From contig OZ242029.1 of assembly GCA_965205015.1 (NCBI GenBank), positions 928,001 to 992,000 of the forward strand: a stretch of DNA of 64,000 bases, read 5' to 3'. A model generated the notes under the pieces. That model saw only the letters and a list, made by a program, of their open reading frames with translations, ran no database searches and was not told where the DNA came from. Position 1 is the first letter of the stretch. Every line of letters begins with the position of its first letter. The stretch is from Candidatus Poribacteria bacterium. GTDB lineage: Bacteria; Poribacteria; WGA-4E; WGA-3G. Both the position numbers and the translations under genes were made by a program. Of this stretch, positions 5,604 to 59,380 are shown one piece after another.

Positions 5604-5632
5604 TTGACAATTGAGGTTTTTTGTGGTATACT
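5604..5632 (+). promoter_or_regulatory. Sigma-70 promoter for the XRE-ImmA/DUF4411 pair
   Basis: TTGACA-17bp-TATACT with extended -10 TG. Confidence 0.7.
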
Positions 5633-5789
5633 TTAATTCCCTTTTTGAGTAGGATACGTTAAGTATATTTCGCAGTCACTGCAATTTATTCGTTTGCAAA
5701 TTATCGGAGTTTAACATCGCGCAATTTGAAAACATTTCAATTGATGATTTTACGACGAACTGGTCAACCGGTTTGTGGGGATACACATC

Positions 5790-6962
5790 ATGGCTAAATC
5801 TGTAAAAGCACTCATTACGCCGGAAGTTCTCAAGTGGGCGCGTGAAAAACGCATCAGATTAGAAATTGACTACGCGGCAAAAAAATTAAAGATAGACCCG
5901 GTACGCCTTGAGGCATGGGAAAATGGTACAGAGCAACCCACTATCTCGCAGTTAAAGAAAATTGCGAAACTCTATAAAACCCACATTTCTGTTTTCTATC
6001 TGCCAGAACCACCTATAGGTTTCCAATCACTTATAGACTATCGGGTCTTGCCAGAACCATCTGCTATTAATGAAGAACAGACGTATAAATTGAACGCTAA
6101 TATTATTGAGGCATTCGAAAGACGGGAAATGCTCATTGAATTTTACGAATTGTTAGAGGAGCCGATTCCTCAAGTAACGCTGAAAGTCAATGAAGGAGAA
6201 GAACCGGCGCAAGAAGCAGAAAAAATAACTGAATTTCTTGAGCTTAATAGAGCACAACTACAGGAAGCGAATGATCCATACGCCGCACTGAAATTTTGGA
6301 AACAAACTGTCGAAGCAAAAGGTATTCTGGTCTGTCATACTTCTGTAAACACACATCTTTCTGTTGAATTGAAAACAGTACGTGGGTTTTGCATTGCCCA
6401 GAGACCTTTTCCAATGATCGTATTAAACCCTAAAGACAGACCCTATGGACGTATTTTCACAATTATTCACGAACTCGTCCACATCGCTCTTGGGAAAAGT
6501 ATTATCCAAAATACTGGATTTAGAGGAATAGAAAATCCAGCCCTGAACCAGACCGAAGTCTTTTGCAACCGAGTGGCTGCTGAGGTTTTAGTCCCTGAAA
6601 ATGAGTTGTTAGAAATGGTAAAACTGCAAACCCTTGAAAAAGAACTATCCAGAATTTCCAAGCACTTTCATGTAAGTCCTGAAGTTATTATGCGGCGACT
6701 ACTAACACTTGACAGAATATCGCAACGACACTACGAAACGTACAGAAAATCTCAGCAAGAAAAGTATAAGGGGAAATCCGATCAAGCCGGCGGTATCCGG
6801 CCGTACCACAATCGACTTCTTAATACTTCTGGTGAGCATTTCGCAAGAACTGCTTTTACCACTTACTATGAGGAAAAAATCACAATCTCTGAATTAGCTT
6901 CGGTTTTCTCTAACTGTGATACAAAGCACCTCTTTGAAATTGAAAGTCATATCTCCGTATGA
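5790..6962 (+). CDS. XRE-family HTH fused to ImmA/IrrE (DUF955) zinc metallopeptidase
   Basis: N-terminal HTH (LEAWENG.EQPTISQLKKIA); RIFTIIHELVH (HExxH) and E.FCNRVAAEVL. Confidence 0.88.
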   Translation: MAKSVKALITPEVLKWAREKRIRLEIDYAAKKLKIDPVRLEAWENGTEQPTISQLKKIAKLYKTHISVFYLPEPPIGFQSLIDYRVLPEPSAINEEQTYKLNANIIEAFERREMLIEFYELLEEPIPQVTLKVNEGEEPAQEAEKITEFLELNRAQLQEANDPYAALKFWKQTVEAKGILVCHTSVNTHLSVELKTVRGFCIAQRPFPMIVLNPKDRPYGRIFTIIHELVHIALGKSIIQNTGFRGIENPALNQTEVFCNRVAAEVLVPENELLEMVKLQTLEKELSRISKHFHVSPEVIMRRLLTLDRISQRHYETYRKSQQEKYKGKSDQAGGIRPYHNRLLNTSGEHFARTAFTTYYEEKITISELASVFSNCDTKHLFEIESHISV

Positions 6963-53124: not shown

Positions 53125-54000
53125 CTACCTTACAGAAGTTGCCCACCGATTTGGACCAGGACCGGGCTGATGTTCATCACGAACGCGCTTAAATTCCTCA
53201 GGCGTCGTAACAACATCCTCGGGATGCAACCGACTCCGCGCGAGAAAGCCTGCTTCCGGTTGATAGCCGGTCGGTTTCGACGCATCTTGATAGCGGGAAT
53301 CAACACTCCATCGGACCTGGTGACTGACATTCGGAATGGAGCGGTGCGGGGTCAGATTGGTAAGTAGAAGTATGCTGCCAAACTTGACAGGGACCACTAC
53401 CGGATCAACTTCGGGCAATTCGTCCTGTGGAATTTCAAGATAGAAACGTTCAGAGTGACGATGCCGGAAAACACCATCCCGATGGGCATGCGGGATGACT
53501 TCCAAACATCCGTTCTCCACGGTAGCATCTATCAATGGAATCCAAATTGTGAGCTGCAAGACAGAATCGCATTTAGGTTCCATATAGCCAGCGTCCTGAT
53601 GCCACGGGACGAGCGTCCGATCGTGTTCAGGGAGTTTCGGACGCACCCGATATGCTGGGTGACACATAATCTCCGGTCCAACGAGCGACTCGGCAAGGTC
53701 AAGCAACTTCGGATGACTAAGTAGATCAAAGAGTGCCGGTCCCGTGTGTGCACCACTGAACACCTTCTGGAACACGACCGGCGACTGCGCCGTAATTTTT
53801 GCCAAACGGGTGTCAAACCCTTCCGTTTTGAATTCGGAGTCAATTTCACCGTCCGCGTAGAGTTCCGATGCGCCAGTGTCGACAATTTCCTCAAACTCTG
53901 CGATCAGTGGGTTCAGGTCGTCCGGTGCCAAGGCATCTTCGATGAGTAGATAGCCGTTTTCATTAAAATCGTGGATTTGCGAATTGGTTAATGCTTTCAT
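53125..54000 (-). CDS. PhyH family dioxygenase
   Basis: PWHQD, WIPL.DAT.ENGCL, TPHRS, RWS.D.RY. Confidence 0.88.
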   Translation of the reverse strand: MKALTNSQIHDFNENGYLLIEDALAPDDLNPLIAEFEEIVDTGASELYADGEIDSEFKTEGFDTRLAKITAQSPVVFQKVFSGAHTGPALFDLLSHPKLLDLAESLVGPEIMCHPAYRVRPKLPEHDRTLVPWHQDAGYMEPKCDSVLQLTIWIPLIDATVENGCLEVIPHAHRDGVFRHRHSERFYLEIPQDELPEVDPVVVPVKFGSILLLTNLTPHRSIPNVSHQVRWSVDSRYQDASKPTGYQPEAGFLARSRLHPEDVVTTPEEFKRVRDEHQPGPGPNRWATSVR

Positions 54001-54405
54001 AATTTTTATAAGAGGGTTTTGCTTTATTGCGTTGTTCTTCGTTGACGAACCCATTTTTGATGAAGTGTGAGTGCTGACATCTTTGACAGTTCATCGTCTG
54101 TGCCTCCTGAAGCCAGCGTTCTTTTTTTATGAGGATACCAGATCAATTGATATGCGTCAAGTGAAAAATTAGTTTGATTTTTTTGATATTTTTTTTAAAT
54201 TTGTTATTCTTTAGACGAATACAATTGGATGTGATATATTAGTGTTGGTTGGGGAAACACCCAAGCAAAAATGCCGTACTGTATCGTCGAAAAAAGACGT
54301 GAAACCCAATAATTTCTTAAAATTGAATGGTTCTAACAAAAAGTTAACGTTAACGGGAATTTGACTTGTAAAATCCTATTACACCGCTAAAAGGAGAAAA
54401 TTCTA

Positions 54406-56916
54406 ATGAAAAAAATGCTGCTTTCTATATTTCTAACGCATATTATCGTTTCAACACTTTTGCTATCAAACGCCTTTGCACAAGACGACACAACGTGGTA
54501 CCTACCCGAAGGTGCCAAAGCCCGGTTCGGTAAAGGTAGTGTGGCGGAGATAAAGTATTCCCCAGATGGTGCCCGTTTAGCAGTTGCGAGTGGTATCGGT
54601 ATTTGGCTTTATGATGCGGAGACCTATCAAGCGTTATCCCTACTCACAGGGCATACGCGTCCGGTTATTAGCGTAGCATTCAGTCCAGATGGGAAGATGC
54701 TTGCAAGTGGGAGTGAGGATCGCACGGTCCGTTTATGGGATGCGTTGACAGGTGAACAAAAACAGACACTCACAGGGCATGCGCATTGGGTCGCTAGTGT
54801 AGCGTTCAGTCCAGATGGGCAGACCCTCGCAAGTGGCAGTTGGGATAAGACGGTCCGTTTATGGGATGCGTTGACAGGTGAACACAAGCAAACACTCACA
54901 GGACATACGTATGCGGTCTATAGTGTAGCGTTCAGTCCAGATGGGCAGACCCTCGCAAGTGGCAGTGACGACACGGTCCATTTATGGGATGCGTTGACGG
55001 GTGAACAAAAACAGACACTCACAGGGCATATGCGTTCTTTGAGGAGCGTAGCGTTCAGTCCAGATGGGCAGACCCTCGCAAGTGGGGATTGGTACGGCGT
55101 GACCAATTTATGGGATGCGTTGACAGGTGAACACAAGCAAACAGCCACAGGTGGTCGGTGTTGGGTCGTTAGCGAAGTATCGTTCAGTCCGGATGGAGGG
55201 ACACTCGCAAGTGCGGGAGGTTTTGTGCGCGGTGCTATCGATTTATGGGATGCGTTGACAGGTGGATATAAGCAAACACTCACAGGGCATATAAGTACGG
55301 TCTATAGTGTAGCGTTCAGTCCCGATGGGCAAACCCTCGCAAGTAGTGCTGCGGATGGTACGATTCGTTTCTGGGATGCGTTGACAGGTGAACACAAGCA
55401 AACACTCACAGGACATACGTATGAGGTCTATAATGTAGCGTTCAGTCCAGATGGCAAGACGCTTGCAAGTACAAACTACACGACTATCCGTTTATGGGAT
55501 GCATTGACGGGTGAACAAAAACAGACACTCATAGGGGATATAAATTTTTTGGACACCGTAGCGTTCAGTCCCGATGGGCAAATCCTCGCAAGTGGGGATC
55601 GTAGTCGCATTGTGTTTTTGTGGGATGTGTTGACGGGTGAACGAAAACAAATACCCGCACCAATACTCACAGAGCATCTAAGTACGACCCGTAGTGTAGC
55701 GTTCAGTCCCGATGGGCAAACCCTCGCAAGTAGCAGTGGGGATAAGACGGTCCGTTTATGGGATGTGTTGACGGGTGAACAAAAACAGACACTCACAGGA
55801 CATACGCATGCGGTCCATAATGTAGCGTTCAGTCCCGATGGGCAAACCCTCGCAAGTGGCAGTGGGGATAAGACGGTCCGTTTATGGGATGTGTTGACGG
55901 GTGAACAAAAACAAATACTCACAGGGCATACAAGTTCGCTCCTTAGTGTAGCGTTCAGTCCCGATGGGCAAACCCTCGCAAGTGGCAGTGGGGATAAGAC
56001 GGTCCGTTTATGGGATGTGTTGACGGGTGAACAAAAGCAAACACTCACAGGGCATATAAGTACGGTCTATAGTGTAGCGTTCAGTCCCGATGGGCAAACC
56101 CTCGCAAGTAGCGGTTATGTTAGGATTCGTTTATGGGATGTGTTGACGGGTGAACCAAAACAAATACTCACAGGGCATACACGTACGGTCCTTAGTGTAG
56201 CGTTCAGTCCCGATGGGCAAACCCTCGCAAGTGGCAGTGAGGATGGCACTGTGCTTTTGTGGGATGTTACGCCTTTTTCCACAAAGCCTGATTCCGTGTA
56301 TCCTGTATGGGATGTAAATGAGGATGGTCAAATCAACATATTGGATTTGGTTGCTGTGGCACAAAACCTCGAAAAACCTTTAACAGTGAACCCACGGGCA
56401 GATGTGAACAGTGATAATAGTATCAATATTTTAGACTTAGTGCTTGTCTCGCAACATTTGGGCGGATCAACACGTGCTGCTCCTACAAGTATTGTCAGAT
56501 TAGATCTTGACCCGGTACGCGTTGAAGGGTGGTTAGCACTGGCGCGGATTGAAAACGACGGTTCTTTAGCATTCCGACAAGGTATAGCGAATCTGGAACG
56601 GCTTTTAGCATCGCTGATCCCGGAAGAAACAGGACTCTTGCCAAACTACCCCAATCCCTTCAACCCGGAAACGTGGATACCGTATCAGTTGGCAAAATTT
56701 ACAGCGGTTAGCATCTCTATTTATGCTGCCAATGGGCACTTGGTTCGGAGGTTAGACTTAGGGCATCAACCTGCGGGTTTATATAAATCACGTAGCCGTG
56801 CAGCGTATTGGGATGGTAAAAACGATCTCGGTGAGCCTATTGCGAGCGGCGTGTATTTCTATTCATTTACTGCTGGGGATTTCACCGCAACGCGGAAGAT
56901 GCTGATACGGAAATAG
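54406..56916 (+). CDS. Secreted WD40-repeat protein with dockerin-like and FlgD-Ig/T9SS-like C-terminal domains
   Basis: ~13 highly similar WD40 repeats; DVNEDGQINILD; LLPNYPNPFNPETWIPY. Confidence 0.9.
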   Translation: MKKMLLSIFLTHIIVSTLLLSNAFAQDDTTWYLPEGAKARFGKGSVAEIKYSPDGARLAVASGIGIWLYDAETYQALSLLTGHTRPVISVAFSPDGKMLASGSEDRTVRLWDALTGEQKQTLTGHAHWVASVAFSPDGQTLASGSWDKTVRLWDALTGEHKQTLTGHTYAVYSVAFSPDGQTLASGSDDTVHLWDALTGEQKQTLTGHMRSLRSVAFSPDGQTLASGDWYGVTNLWDALTGEHKQTATGGRCWVVSEVSFSPDGGTLASAGGFVRGAIDLWDALTGGYKQTLTGHISTVYSVAFSPDGQTLASSAADGTIRFWDALTGEHKQTLTGHTYEVYNVAFSPDGKTLASTNYTTIRLWDALTGEQKQTLIGDINFLDTVAFSPDGQILASGDRSRIVFLWDVLTGERKQIPAPILTEHLSTTRSVAFSPDGQTLASSSGDKTVRLWDVLTGEQKQTLTGHTHAVHNVAFSPDGQTLASGSGDKTVRLWDVLTGEQKQILTGHTSSLLSVAFSPDGQTLASGSGDKTVRLWDVLTGEQKQTLTGHISTVYSVAFSPDGQTLASSGYVRIRLWDVLTGEPKQILTGHTRTVLSVAFSPDGQTLASGSEDGTVLLWDVTPFSTKPDSVYPVWDVNEDGQINILDLVAVAQNLEKPLTVNPRADVNSDNSINILDLVLVSQHLGGSTRAAPTSIVRLDLDPVRVEGWLALARIENDGSLAFRQGIANLERLLASLIPEETGLLPNYPNPFNPETWIPYQLAKFTAVSISIYAANGHLVRRLDLGHQPAGLYKSRSRAAYWDGKNDLGEPIASGVYFYSFTAGDFTATRKMLIRK

Positions 56917-56934
56917 TATCATATGACCATAGGA

Positions 56935-57011
56935 GTGCTGGGATGCTGATGTCTATTAGCTTCCCAGCGATCACTGATGAGTGGAAATGATGTGCTTGCA
57001 GGCACATTTGC
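56935..57011 (-). ncRNA. Candidate small structured RNA (or operator array) inside the element's left end
   Basis: Three stems: ATGTGC/GCACAT, CACT/AGTG, GCTGGGA/TCCCAGC; immediately downstream of a near-consensus promoter. Confidence 0.4.
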
Positions 57012-57015
57012 TTGA

Positions 57016-57044
57016 AGTATAACAATACGGGTAAGGGGTGTCAA
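57016..57044 (-). promoter_or_regulatory. Near-consensus sigma-70 promoter pointing toward the left inverted repeat
   Basis: Minus strand TTGACA-17bp-TATACT with TG extension. Confidence 0.75.
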
Positions 57045-57052
57045 CCCTATTT

Positions 57053-57910
57053 TCAACGGATCTGCTCCTTTTTTACTAAGTTTTCATCCATGGTTTTGAG
57101 TTGATCCTCTGGAATGAGGTCGAGATATTGAGTAATAACGCGTCTCGAAAGTCGTGTAATCTGTGAGATTTCGTCAATATCTGCGGTCGCTCTGCGAACG
57201 ACTTTCACCGACTCATAATCCCGGATGTATCGGTCAACAGCCTCCTTGGAGTGCTTGGTCTTGGCAGCAATAGTTGGGGTGAGATACCCTTGAAGATAGA
57301 GGGTGATGATCTCTCTCTTGTGGGTAATCGCCCCCGATAGGTCGTGGATATTGCCCCGAGTGGGTAAGATGTCTCCTGTGGTTCTCTGCCATTCATTGAC
57401 GTAGTCCTGGACGACAGCATCACAGACATTGAGCAAAACTGCCAAGTCGAGTTGCGTCAATAAGGCGCCCTGGTCATAAGCTTGATGACACCAGCGGACC
57501 AAGCGATTGATCCGGAGTTGCCGGGAGGTAAACCCGTTGCGAAACGATTCAACATCCTCTGTAGCAAGATAGGTCAGGAGGATGGGTTTCATACGGGTCT
57601 TGATGATCGCTTTGCCTCTTTCTGGGTATTCATCAATCGGCACCGCCATCCAGACGAGTTGTCCATAGCGGAGGTATCGCTCCTCGGGGAGTTCGTCGCC
57701 CGTGGCAAGTTTCTCCAAAGGGAGGGTAATGACGAAATACTCCTCAACAGTCTTGAGGATATCCTCAACAATAGCAGTCGCAGTGACTTCGCCTTTATCA
57801 TACCCGTAGTCATTCAAAAAGCGATGGATGAGCAACTGTCGTAGGGATTTATCGTTGATGCGTCTGAACTTCTTCTCGTTGATTTGCGTGCGCGTCAAAG
57901 GCTTGCTCAT
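57053..57910 (-). CDS. DUF1670-like domain protein (second of pair)
   Basis: AYDQGALLTQLDLAVLL, PTRGNIHD, THKREII.LYL.G, HS.EAVDRYIRD. Confidence 0.8.
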   Translation of the reverse strand: MSKPLTRTQINEKKFRRINDKSLRQLLIHRFLNDYGYDKGEVTATAIVEDILKTVEEYFVITLPLEKLATGDELPEERYLRYGQLVWMAVPIDEYPERGKAIIKTRMKPILLTYLATEDVESFRNGFTSRQLRINRLVRWCHQAYDQGALLTQLDLAVLLNVCDAVVQDYVNEWQRTTGDILPTRGNIHDLSGAITHKREIITLYLQGYLTPTIAAKTKHSKEAVDRYIRDYESVKVVRRATADIDEISQITRLSRRVITQYLDLIPEDQLKTMDENLVKKEQIR

Positions 57911-58707
57911 CGGAGATCCCCCTTTTTTTCCTCCATGGGTTCGGGGTGAAGCAGCTGGGTCATGCGATCGGTGTCTTGGTATTGCTCATACAGCGAGAGA
58001 TACTCGCGAATGAGGCGGTCCGAGAGGTGGGTGATCAGGCGTATCTGTCCCCTCGGGAAGTCTTGGTGATGGAGCGTGGCGACCTGTGTGAAGTCTCTGA
58101 GGTAGCGGTAGATGGCGCGTTCGGAGTGGTTGGTCTTTTGCTCAATCTCGGTGAAGGTGTAGTCCTTGAAATACAAATCGAGAATCTGCGTCTTGTGAGA
58201 CAGTCCCGGTCCCATGTCGTGTTTCGCCCCGCGCGTCATGACGAAATACCCGTCCTGCTTCAAGGCGCGGATGTCGCGTTTGACGTTTGCCGGACTCGTG
58301 GTGAGTAAGATGGCTAAATCTTCATAACTCAGCAAGGCGTCTTGGTCATAAGCCTCTTTGGTCAATCGCAGGATGCGGTGGCGTCTGAGGCCTGCCAGAC
58401 CATAACTCGCTAAGACTTCGAAGTCTTCTTCGACCTCATTGAGCGTCAGTCGACAGGAGACTTTCTTCGCTAAAGCGATGTGTTTCCCTGCGGGTTCTTC
58501 GGCAGCGACCGCCTCGTAGCAGATCTGTCCTGAGGTAAGTTGGATATCGGCGTGTTGTTCGAAGTAGGTAGAAATCTGCTTATAGTAGGCTTCGGCCATT
58601 ATAGGTGCCAGATGAAAGTCTGCGGCGATCTTCTGAATGATAGCAGCTCTGGCGTTCTTGGATTCGAGGCGTTTGATACCGTAGGCGGTATCTTTCTTAG
58701 GATTCAT
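57907..58707 (-). CDS. DUF1670-like domain protein (first of pair)
   Basis: EAYDQDALLSYEDLAILL, TRGAKHDMGPG.SHK, HS.RAI.RYLRDF; GGAGG RBS before ATG 58707; ATGA coupling to partner. Confidence 0.8.
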   Translation of the reverse strand: MNPKKDTAYGIKRLESKNARAAIIQKIAADFHLAPIMAEAYYKQISTYFEQHADIQLTSGQICYEAVAAEEPAGKHIALAKKVSCRLTLNEVEEDFEVLASYGLAGLRRHRILRLTKEAYDQDALLSYEDLAILLTTSPANVKRDIRALKQDGYFVMTRGAKHDMGPGLSHKTQILDLYFKDYTFTEIEQKTNHSERAIYRYLRDFTQVATLHHQDFPRGQIRLITHLSDRLIREYLSLYEQYQDTDRMTQLLHPEPMEEKKGDLR

Positions 58708-58774
58708 AGTGACCTCCATGAGGTGAGTCTTGGTGATGAAAATACATCTACCTGTTAGGTGAACTCATACTATC

Positions 58775-58803
58775 AGTATAAATCCTATGGTCATTTGATA
58801 CAA
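58775..58803 (-). promoter_or_regulatory. Promoter of DUF1670 operon overlapping the right inverted repeat
   Basis: Minus strand TTGTAT-17bp-TATACT; the IR fills the spacer and part of the -35. Confidence 0.55.
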
Positions 58804-58954
58804 ACTATAAGTAGATACAAAGTGTATTTGTCGTCTATTATATTTATTTTCTCCGAGTGCCCGGTAGGTCGCTCGGACAGTAGTCTGCTCGTTAGGTTTC
58901 ACTGTGTTTAACCCAACCTGCTTAATTGACAACTATGGTGCGGTTAGATGAAGT

Positions 58955-59380
58955 TTAAAAATTAACTTGGACCAATTCAACCAGAATGCCATCTGGGTCC
59001 CTCGCGCACGCAACGCCCACTGCGTCCGGTGCGCCTATAGGTTCAGACAGAAATTCAACACCGTTCTGTTTTAAGGCTTCGACGGTTCCCTGAATATCTT
59101 CTACAAAAAAGGTAAGCCAGCGGACACCCGCTGCGAATTCACCCGTGGGTGTCGGCGGAGGCGATTCAATATCCATGAGTTTGATAAGTGTGTTACCGGC
59201 TTTAAGCCGGACCTGACGAAAACCTGTCGGCGCAAGCCCTACACCGCGGGCAAGGTCATCTGGAATTTCCAACTCCAGCACGATCTCCAGCCCCAATTTG
59301 TTGTGATAGAAGTCCAGCGAGGCTTCAAAGTCGCTACAGGTAATAGCAATGTCAATAGTGGGATGCGATAGGTTTAGCAC
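58955..59380 (-). CDS. VOC/glyoxalase family protein
   Basis: SLDFY...LGL, F.VEDI, RDPDGILVEL. Confidence 0.88.
   Translation of the reverse strand: MLNLSHPTIDIAITCSDFEASLDFYHNKLGLEIVLELEIPDDLARGVGLAPTGFRQVRLKAGNTLIKLMDIESPPPTPTGEFAAGVRWLTFFVEDIQGTVEALKQNGVEFLSEPIGAPDAVGVACARDPDGILVELVQVNF

Follow-up and report, generated by a model that had tools for sequence, protein, structure and literature searches.

A conserved outward promoter and a possible regulatory leader at the right end of a DUF1670 insertion element in Poribacteria

Introduction

What does a strong promoter do behind the last gene of a small mobile element, where it points out of the element into the flanking DNA? This question is raised by the locus studied here, a stretch of 64,000 nt from contig OZ242029.1 of a Candidatus Poribacteria bacterium (hereafter the window; coordinates are positions on it), which harbours an insertion element of about 1.9 kb with two open reading frames (ORF1 and ORF2) of the DUF1670 family. 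Features of the element lie on the minus strand unless stated otherwise. A preliminary description, made from the letters, had pointed to the promoter and to three stem-loops in a short non-coding segment behind it, and had suggested an element-encoded guide, scaffold or regulatory RNA, with an outward promoter antisense to the neighbouring WD40 gene or an array of DNA operators as alternatives. Below we provide evidence that the promoter is very probably a real and selected feature of the element. We further propose a reading, to which we give an even chance, in which it acts as an outward sigma-70 promoter ("Pout") joined to a clade-specific regulatory leader at the right end. Insertion sequences are known to have outward promoters and RNAs encoded in their ends; here such features belong to the DUF1670 family, for which our literature search found no paper naming "DUF1670" or "PF07900".

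Results

The outward promoter

The sigma-70-type promoter occupies 57016..57044 on the minus strand, with the −35 hexamer TTGACA at 57044-57039, a 17-nt spacer, the TG of an extended −10 at 57024-57023 and the −10 hexamer TATACT at 57021-57016. Just as had been described, it begins 8 nt past the ORF2 stop codon TGA (57055-57053). The promoter scan gave it 11 of 12 consensus matches in addition to the TG, and transcription is predicted to start at about 57009. Such sites are rare: the window has three with at least 11 of 12 matches, two of them with the TG, vs. means of 0.90 and 0.03, respectively, in 60 first-order Markov sequences that served as a random control. The other site with 11 of 12 matches and the TG (5604-5632, plus strand) is intergenic and lies 170 nt upstream of a gene at 5775-6962. 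Since this ordinary gene promoter has the identical hexamers, TTGACA-17-TATACT with the TG looks like the host's own strong promoter type.

The conservation of the promoter was assessed in 47 distinct right ends, obtained from 78 Poribacteria copies and the window, and the promoter was kept in all of them. The −35 reads TTGACA in 35 and is one letter off in 11 of the other 12; the remaining one (L051) is not scorable, as its extracted tail starts inside the −35. The −10 is TATACT in 44 of the 47 and the TG is present in every one, while the spacer measures 17 nt (29 ends), 18 nt (17 ends) or 16 nt (one end). Mean column conservation amounts to 0.94 for the −35 and 0.98 for the −10 vs. 0.73 for the spacer. 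Because the hexamers are conserved while the spacer drifts, selection appears to act on promoter function, and the promoter is thus very probably more than a chance resemblance.

Right ends fall into a short class, which includes the window's copy, and a long class: measured from the −10 to the GATAC at the close of the right repeat (three letters short of the element's end), they span 99-103 nt and 131-136 nt, respectively. A terminator scan found no terminator-like site between the −10 and the end of the element; the transcript would therefore cross the inverted repeat and enter the flank, where it would run antisense to the WD40 gene. Promoter conservation and the missing terminator argue for the outward antisense promoter, which the preliminary description had listed as an alternative.

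Boundaries of the element and geometry of insertion

The whole element comprises 1896 bp (56913..58808, minus strand), as delimited by 104 distinct ORF1-side junctions, 75 distinct gene-side flanks and an orthologous empty site. Read in the orientation of the interrupted gene, it is 5′-ATAG TATCATATGACC ... GGTCATTTGATAC AAACTAT-3′. Its target in the window is a gene for a WD40-repeat protein (54406..56916, plus strand) that ends in a type A sorting domain of the type IX secretion system (T9SS). The domain search gave TIGR04183, the model of this sorting domain, 32.7 bits against a cut-off of 23, and the model scored above the cut-off in all four gene-side flanks tested. When the translations were read by eye, 69 of the 75 distinct gene-side flanks (78 copies) ended in ...FYxLxAGDFTATRKMLIxK*. 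The host gene converges on the ORF2 end in every recovered flank, and there is a single insertion orientation.

The gene-side junction reads AAATA, followed by G in 74-75 of the 75 flanks. On the ORF1 side, the six letters past ...AAACTAT are AAR plus a stop codon in 95 of the 104 distinct junctions, where all three stop codons are represented (AAGTAA 36, AAATAA 21, AAATAG 18, AAGTAG 10, AAGTGA 7, AAATGA 3). Taken together, these junctions show that the distal six letters are the target's own last lysine codon and stop codon. In the window they are the displaced AAG TAG of the WD40/T9SS gene (58809..58814, plus strand), and the present end of this gene (56913..56916, plus strand) is an element-borne A+TAG that, as both junctions indicate, completes a lysine codon (AAA) and provides a stop codon. 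The insertion point thus lies inside or just before the terminal lysine codon, with a 2-bp AA repeat or none and with the A+TAG supplied by the element. The AA of the target's terminal lysine codon stands at 56911..56912 and again at 58809-58810. Because it is invariant on both sides, a 2-bp duplication and an element that begins at 56911 without any duplication are indistinguishable readings. The inferred boundaries are matched to the base by the orthologous empty site in genome G003, CTGAAGTAATTT. For the window's copy, no empty site was found by synteny, and contigs from three DNA runs contained neither a joint across the element nor an empty site; in these contigs, a second copy of the element shares 56894-56970 and then diverges.

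A duplication of TA, our first reading of the junctions, was rejected, as the distal junction retains the AAR and stop codon of the target, including TGA. The element is also unlike IS630/Tc1-mariner elements in that TA is not duplicated (TGA in 10 of the 104 distal junctions) and no DDE family was recognised by Pfam. A supposed requirement for AAATA at the target was discarded, since these letters are element-borne.

The repeat search revealed an inverted repeat of 19 nt, 95% complementary, at the right, ORF2-side end (56916..56934) and, in a subterminal position, at the left, ORF1-side end (58783..58801). The 18-nt pattern of the repeat occurs twice in the window, vs. 0.06 occurrences expected. 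Outside the left repeat lies a terminal extension AAACTAT (58802..58808, plus strand), which, as the junctions show, is kept in all subfamilies. The left end further contains a GATG-N6-CATC palindrome, a duplicate of the repeat motif (in one clade) and, overlapping the left repeat, a putative weak promoter of ORF1, TTGTAT-17-TATACT (58775..58803, minus strand), which was read from the left-end sequence and has 8 of 12 matches, below the threshold of the scan.

In five related genomes, the orthologues of genes 53125-54054 and 58955-59380 adjoin directly, such that the interval corresponding to 54055-58954, with the WD40/T9SS gene and the element, is missing as a whole. The gene and its DUF1670 passenger may have been gained or lost as one block. 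The sorting-domain coding region, about 270 nt long, is itself repetitive: genomes G001-G006 contain 35-63 copies each, with 66-77% DNA identity, and therefore dozens of potential insertion sites each.

The leader downstream of the promoter

Folding and the repeat search recovered all three stem-loops noticed between the promoter and the inverted repeat. Stem-loop 1, ATGTGC-N6-GCACAT (56990..57007, minus strand; 57007-57002 paired with 56995-56990), directly follows the predicted start. Stem-loop 2, CACT-N4-AGTG (56972..56983, minus strand; 56983-56980 with 56975-56972), is poorly conserved. Stem-loop 3 (56937..56968, minus strand; 56968-56962 with 56943-56937) combines seven outer pairs with an imperfect inner helix and can be extended to 14 pairs. 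The segment is non-coding, as had been supposed: the tails have no conserved ORF, an ATG present in some relatives is absent in others, and indels occur between tails. Nor did Rfam 15 give a match in 56913-57050, three matches at E 2.6-5.4 all lying outside the tail.

Positions 56935-57009 fold beyond chance on either strand, at −25.4 kcal/mol on the minus strand (z −4.17) and −33.8 kcal/mol on the plus strand (z −5.09), and none of 200 shuffles was as good in either case. The earlier remark that the plus strand pairs better is thus correct for the window's copy, and the same strand was lower in absolute energy in 39 of 46 tails. These energies could mean that the plus-strand structures serve as a new 3′ end, a stabilising stem or terminator, for the interrupted host mRNA and stop read-through into the element; the removal of the host gene's own terminator by the element would fit such a role, and the inner part of stem 3 pairs in 94% of cells on the opposite strand vs. 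71% on the coding strand. We nevertheless regard this role as very unlikely. Correction for composition removes the advantage of the plus strand (mean z of −2.0 vs. −2.7 on the coding strand over the 46 tails), helix C (99% on the coding vs. 81% on the opposite strand) and outer stem 3 (88% vs. 77%) favour the coding strand, no U-run follows the hairpins, the terminator scan found no terminator there, and the conserved minus-strand promoter would be left unexplained. Helix B (87% vs. 96%) again prefers the opposite strand. Because the wobble asymmetry points opposite ways in different helices, G.U and A.C mismatches do not assign the functional strand.

Furthermore, we compared the leader with four-fold sites in ORF2. 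Among 505 informative pairs of long-class copies, identity at these sites was 0.60, whereas the first hairpin region reached 0.78, the middle 0.75, stem 3 0.83 and the repeat 0.95, a difference that aligned non-coding columns may somewhat inflate in favour of the leader. The most divergent group showed the same picture, with 0.41 at four-fold sites vs. 0.63, 0.57, 0.72 and 0.85, respectively. Because leader identity exceeds that of four-fold sites, the leader is under purifying selection.

Stem conservation in the window's subfamily is one of sequence and is not accompanied by robust covariation, an outcome that the preliminary description had named as speaking against its RNA, although the power of these tests is low. 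RNAalifold returned a consensus of only −0.44 kcal/mol and no compensated pair. In the window's clade, six helices drawn by hand had 82.0% of cells paired vs. 80.0% after shuffling, and double changes were seen in 7 pairs vs. 6.2 in shuffled alignments, a value reached by 185 of 500 shuffles at the low divergence of this clade. Among ten short-class tails, stem 1 is invariant in all ten and stem 3 shows no variation; stem 2 is not kept, its second pair being A-T in five.

This conservation as sequence would be expected if the hairpins were palindromic sites in duplex DNA, bound by the multi-helix-turn-helix (multi-HTH) DUF1670 proteins, with the RNA devoid of a role and the promoter tolerated or a by-product. 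Consistent with such sites are the similar z-scores of the two strands together with the mixed wobble bias, the presence of about three HTH modules per protein, the GATG-N6-CATC palindrome and extra repeat motif at the left end, and the rearranged copy L175, which retains the last 113 nt of the tail without the promoter. However, the hexamers, TG and spacing kept in 47 of 47 tails over a drifting spacer speak of promoter selection. Moreover, the short and long classes each form a hairpin just past the start, using different partners, and the structure of a sister clade described below keeps its pairing through a complete turnover of sequence. We therefore consider the duplex-DNA explanation unlikely. 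The rebuilding of the hairpin with different partners, as well as a double change in helix B of the rearranged copies L174 and L175 (GCATC/GATGC to GCAGC/GCTGC), speaks for structure as such. A pairing between the tail and the ORF1 leader, seen by eye, was dropped because it is not conserved between the short and long classes.

A covarying module in a sister clade

In nine sister loci (L114, L116, L117, L121, L134, L137, L141, L144 and L166), the 3′ end of ORF2 carries a covarying multi-helix fold, which is flanked by a promoter-like site and the repeat (for instance, L117:1990-2182). Within it, the loop CTCTGCTGRRGAGCAA is invariant and the motif ATGCCTTAAAAAACC comes later; the fold overlaps the reading frame where this is extended at the C-terminus. 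In the alignment, read by eye, TTGnnn-16/17-TAnnnT precedes the fold by 10-12 nt in all nine loci, and the 9-of-12 promoter scan placed a site 189-204 nt from the end in four of the eight sister loci that reach the repeat. Two helices of the fold had 93.3% of cells paired vs. 80.0% in shuffled alignments and at most 54% in slid controls. Compensatory double changes were present in 9 of 15 pairs, which only 3 of 500 shuffles reached. The changes that preserve pairing alter amino acids of the overlapped reading frame. The third hairpin, a long one, shows a complete turnover of sequence and forms G.U pairs on the coding strand.

Rfam 15 had no match to this fold, the one match among 12 sister loci standing at E 0.86. 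Homology between the window's tail and the sister fold was rejected: covariance model R1, run on 100 sources including the window, matched its nine training loci only, with L156 following at E 0.23. The interval between ORF2 and the right repeat is thus a variable slot, filled by different structured modules in different clades. As to the structured RNA proposed at the outset, it is supported by the folding beyond chance, the purifying selection and the covarying fold of one sister clade; robust covariation was not found in the window's own subfamily, where power is low.

The tail as a target guide

We then asked about guiding of insertion by the tail. In seven representative elements, a weight matrix of 24 target letters, which gives true sites a median of 27 bits, revealed no recurrent target-like site. 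When each tail was aligned locally with the flank next to it (both strands, 300 shuffles), p<0.01 was reached in one of 13 Poribacteria representatives and in none of 24 sister loci; the sole significant match is the window's own 9-mer ATCAGCATC, found in stem 3 and in the flank. The loops, for which a comparison with insertion targets had been suggested, match these no better than chance, and the same holds for the arms. The identical sorting-domain target is used by relatives whose tails are unrelated or, in 11 loci, only 23-56 nt long, and target choice is therefore independent of the tail. Thus, the guide RNA suggested earlier is not supported. Target choice would seem to reside in the parts common to all subfamilies, namely the two multi-HTH DUF1670 proteins and the repeats.

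DUF1670 proteins and related elements

ORF2 (57053..57910, minus strand) encodes a DUF1670 protein of 285 aa (PF07900, E 1.1e-61), and ORF1 (57907..58719, minus strand), which overlaps it by 4 nt, a paralogue of 270 aa (PF07900, E 7.5e-60). The AlphaFold model of ORF2, with a predicted local distance difference test (pLDDT) score of 86, consists mainly of helices and has about three HTH-type modules beyond residue 128. Foldseek with this model returned nothing at E up to 0.001 (best E 0.36), and a wide structure search (VIA) found HTH domains only, with Z up to 6.6. For both proteins, Pfam at E up to 0.01 listed DUF1670 and sub-threshold HTH families only; there was no match in NCBIfam and none among PDB sequences, and Atlas gave HTH clusters at 0.82 or lower. 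Hence, Pfam, NCBIfam, PDB-sequence and fold searches revealed no recognisable catalytic fold, the fold searches alone being indecisive. Residues 183-228 of ORF2, around the linker between two HTH modules, include the nearly invariant LPxRGxxHDxGxxxTHK and H...DRY; these only strongly conserved polar residues are candidates for chemistry. At 50% identity, the DUF1670 family falls into 1021 clusters (E up to 0.001). Some members (P0132, P0134, P0137 and P0141 among them) are of 930-952 aa with three matched stretches or of about 520-545 aa with two, and these long proteins are fused forms of the tandem paralogues.

With one genome per species scanned, we found 123 relatives of ORF2. The best 80 of the 123 loci are all in Poribacteria-type metagenome-assembled genomes, often many per genome, and the family is present in 39 of 150 sampled genomes of the phylum. 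The element behaves as an insertion sequence: it is present in many copies at different sites, its ends are defined and an orthologous site is empty. Small tail-only derivatives were considered and rejected: tail copies in five genomes (20, 9, 11, 9 and 8) track the gene copies, and partial tails are rearranged copies. No relatives were found on plasmids, and for other Poribacteria DUF1670 subfamilies only truncated copies were found.

A metagenome scan, in which a single protein, 60% identical, was the query, yielded 60 loci with 44-77% identity to the query. As far as their contigs permit, these loci keep the two genes, the terminal repeat, a left extension YTTATAGTTW and the sorting-domain target; of 45 candidate ends, 32 fit a strict target pattern and several others come close to it. 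Their tails are unrelated to that of the window. In the 11 loci with a tail of only 23-56 nt, the leader before ORF1 measures about 55-60 nt.

Several single loci deserve a mention. At L077:2104-2140, the left end of a full element is adjoined by a right-repeat copy of 13 nt (GGTTATTTGATAC) and a TA behind this copy, which may be a relic of a head-to-tail pair. At L175:1180-2623, the DUF1670 genes are replaced by a putative YhgA-like transposase of 371 aa (PF04754, E 1.7e-30) on the other strand. At L174:825-2373, a 113-nt remnant of the tail adjoins apparent IS607-type genes, a TnpB-like ORF of 474 aa and a resolvase-like ORF of 153 aa, as labelled from translations by eye.

Discussion

The reading that we put forward at an even chance is as follows. 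Transcription from the promoter would yield a right-end leader of about 95 nt, non-coding and rich in hairpins, and would continue across the inverted repeat. Because the element always stands tail-to-tail with a sorting-domain gene whose terminator it has displaced, the transcript of an integrated copy would be antisense to the 3′ end of this gene and would oppose read-through from it. If the ends were joined, in an excised circle or a head-to-tail pair, the strong promoter would drive the two DUF1670 genes, which are themselves weakly promoted. The leader would be a clade-specific module of regulation or expression, probably also containing a subterminal sequence bound by protein. The firing of the promoter, both of these roles and the joined-end intermediate are what we infer.

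Outward promoters in the ends of insertion sequences are known from IS10, with its pOUT, and from the junction promoters of the circle-forming IS911, IS2 and IS30; IS10 pOUT makes a stem-loop RNA. In the DUF1670 element, too, the promoter lies within one end and points outward, such that it could act on neighbours or, once the ends are joined, on the transposase genes. Unlike the junction promoters, however, it is not split: it is complete and stands 3′ of the genes, 99-136 nt from the end. Unlike the RNA of IS10 pOUT, that of the DUF1670 element is not antisense to the element's own mRNA.

Several observations weigh against the outward promoter and its leader as we read them. The classical junction promoters are split, and they differ in this from a promoter that is complete and lies more than 100 nt away from the end. 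In contrast to circle-forming insertion sequences, a joined-end form, as a circle or tandem, whose junction would read ...GATACTAT(TT)ATAGTTTG..., was found in none of the loci scanned. In AT-rich relatives, the promoter-like sites score no higher than 9-10 and in part coincide with conserved codons. L175, which has no promoter, is located at the end of a sorting-domain gene and has retained its left end as well as the last 113 nt of its tail; from this single case, the promoter may not be needed in cis. In several sister members, the third hairpin is followed by a T-run and resembles a terminator, which would yield a discrete small RNA and block read-out. Finally, the conservation of the leader as sequence fits a specifically bound RNA or DNA, beyond a passive leader.

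With regard to its target, the element can be compared with Tn7, which inserts at attTn7 in a site- and orientation-specific manner without gene inactivation. In the IS1202 family next to dif sites (PMC10132070), insertion likewise keeps a set distance and orientation relative to a conserved sequence of the host and does not inactivate the gene. Unlike in both of these systems, the target is a multi-copy coding motif, the last codons of T9SS type A sorting domains, and the DUF1670 element itself restores the lysine codon and the stop codon.

A specifically bound RNA brings the leader close to RNA-assisted transposition. In this explanation, the promoter makes a dedicated functional non-coding RNA that serves the DUF1670 proteins as a scaffold or cofactor in excision or integration, by analogy with the RNA from the 3′ non-coding region of IS1111 or the omega RNA of IS605, with its 3′ part taken from the flank. 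The architecture of the element resembles that of the IS110/IS1111 group (PMC11187229; PMC11208160): as in IS1111, the genes are followed by a non-coding region, and there are subterminal repeats with an extension at one end. Also shared are a single orientation, no or minimal duplication and a target within a conserved coding motif (PMC11187229). As in the omega RNA or reRNA of IS200/IS605 elements (bioRxiv 10.1101/2023.03.14.532601), the 3′ region of the last gene is structured and the transcript would cross the right end into the flank. The cofactor is further favoured by the HTH domains of the DUF1670 proteins with no recognisable catalytic fold, by purifying selection on the leader, by the helix B double change in L174 and L175, and by the nine sister loci, which covary at the equivalent position with a fold that overrides the overlapped amino acids and has G.U pairs on the coding strand.

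Still, the differences are considerable, and we find such a cofactor rather doubtful. IS1111 RNA contains matches to both target strands (PMC11187229), whereas tails of the DUF1670 element have no target-matching segments or recurrent match to the target on either strand, and all subfamilies use one target whatever their non-coding region, despite unrelated tails. The 11 loci with a 23-56-nt tail and an ORF1 leader of about 55-60 nt leave no room for such an RNA. Robust covariation is missing in the window's clade, where 185 of 500 shuffles are as good and RNAalifold finds almost nothing, and the G.U and A.C asymmetry differs in strand between helices. Unlike IS110/IS1111 elements, the DUF1670 element has a complete internal promoter and multi-HTH proteins in which neither Pfam nor NCBIfam recognised a DEDD (RuvC-like) transposase. 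Unlike IS200/IS605 elements, it has inverted repeats, two DUF1670 genes only, thus neither a TnpB/IscB nuclease nor an HUH transposase, and no Rfam match. A bolder variant, in which the DUF1670 pair is a new kind of recombinase without a known catalytic fold and the promoter-driven right-end RNA of long-tailed clades, the window's among them, is its bound cofactor in synapsis or strand exchange, seems to us distinctly unlikely. If it held true, it would be the third independent RNA-assisted transposition system after IS110/IS1111 and IS605, and the read-through part of the RNA, antisense to sorting-domain codons, could help to find the ends of paralogous genes.

Conclusions

The DUF1670 element inserts with base precision in the last codon of T9SS sorting-domain genes and itself repairs the codon and the stop. 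The conserved promoter and the constrained, clade-specific tail are its only non-coding parts besides the repeats and therefore offer a natural handle on the expression and control of the element. Should the tail RNA prove to be a cofactor, the element would represent a new system of RNA-assisted recombination that relies on a compact pair of proteins. Moreover, because the element always faces a host gene deprived of its terminator, the promoter may alter the expression of dozens of genes for secreted proteins in these sponge symbionts.

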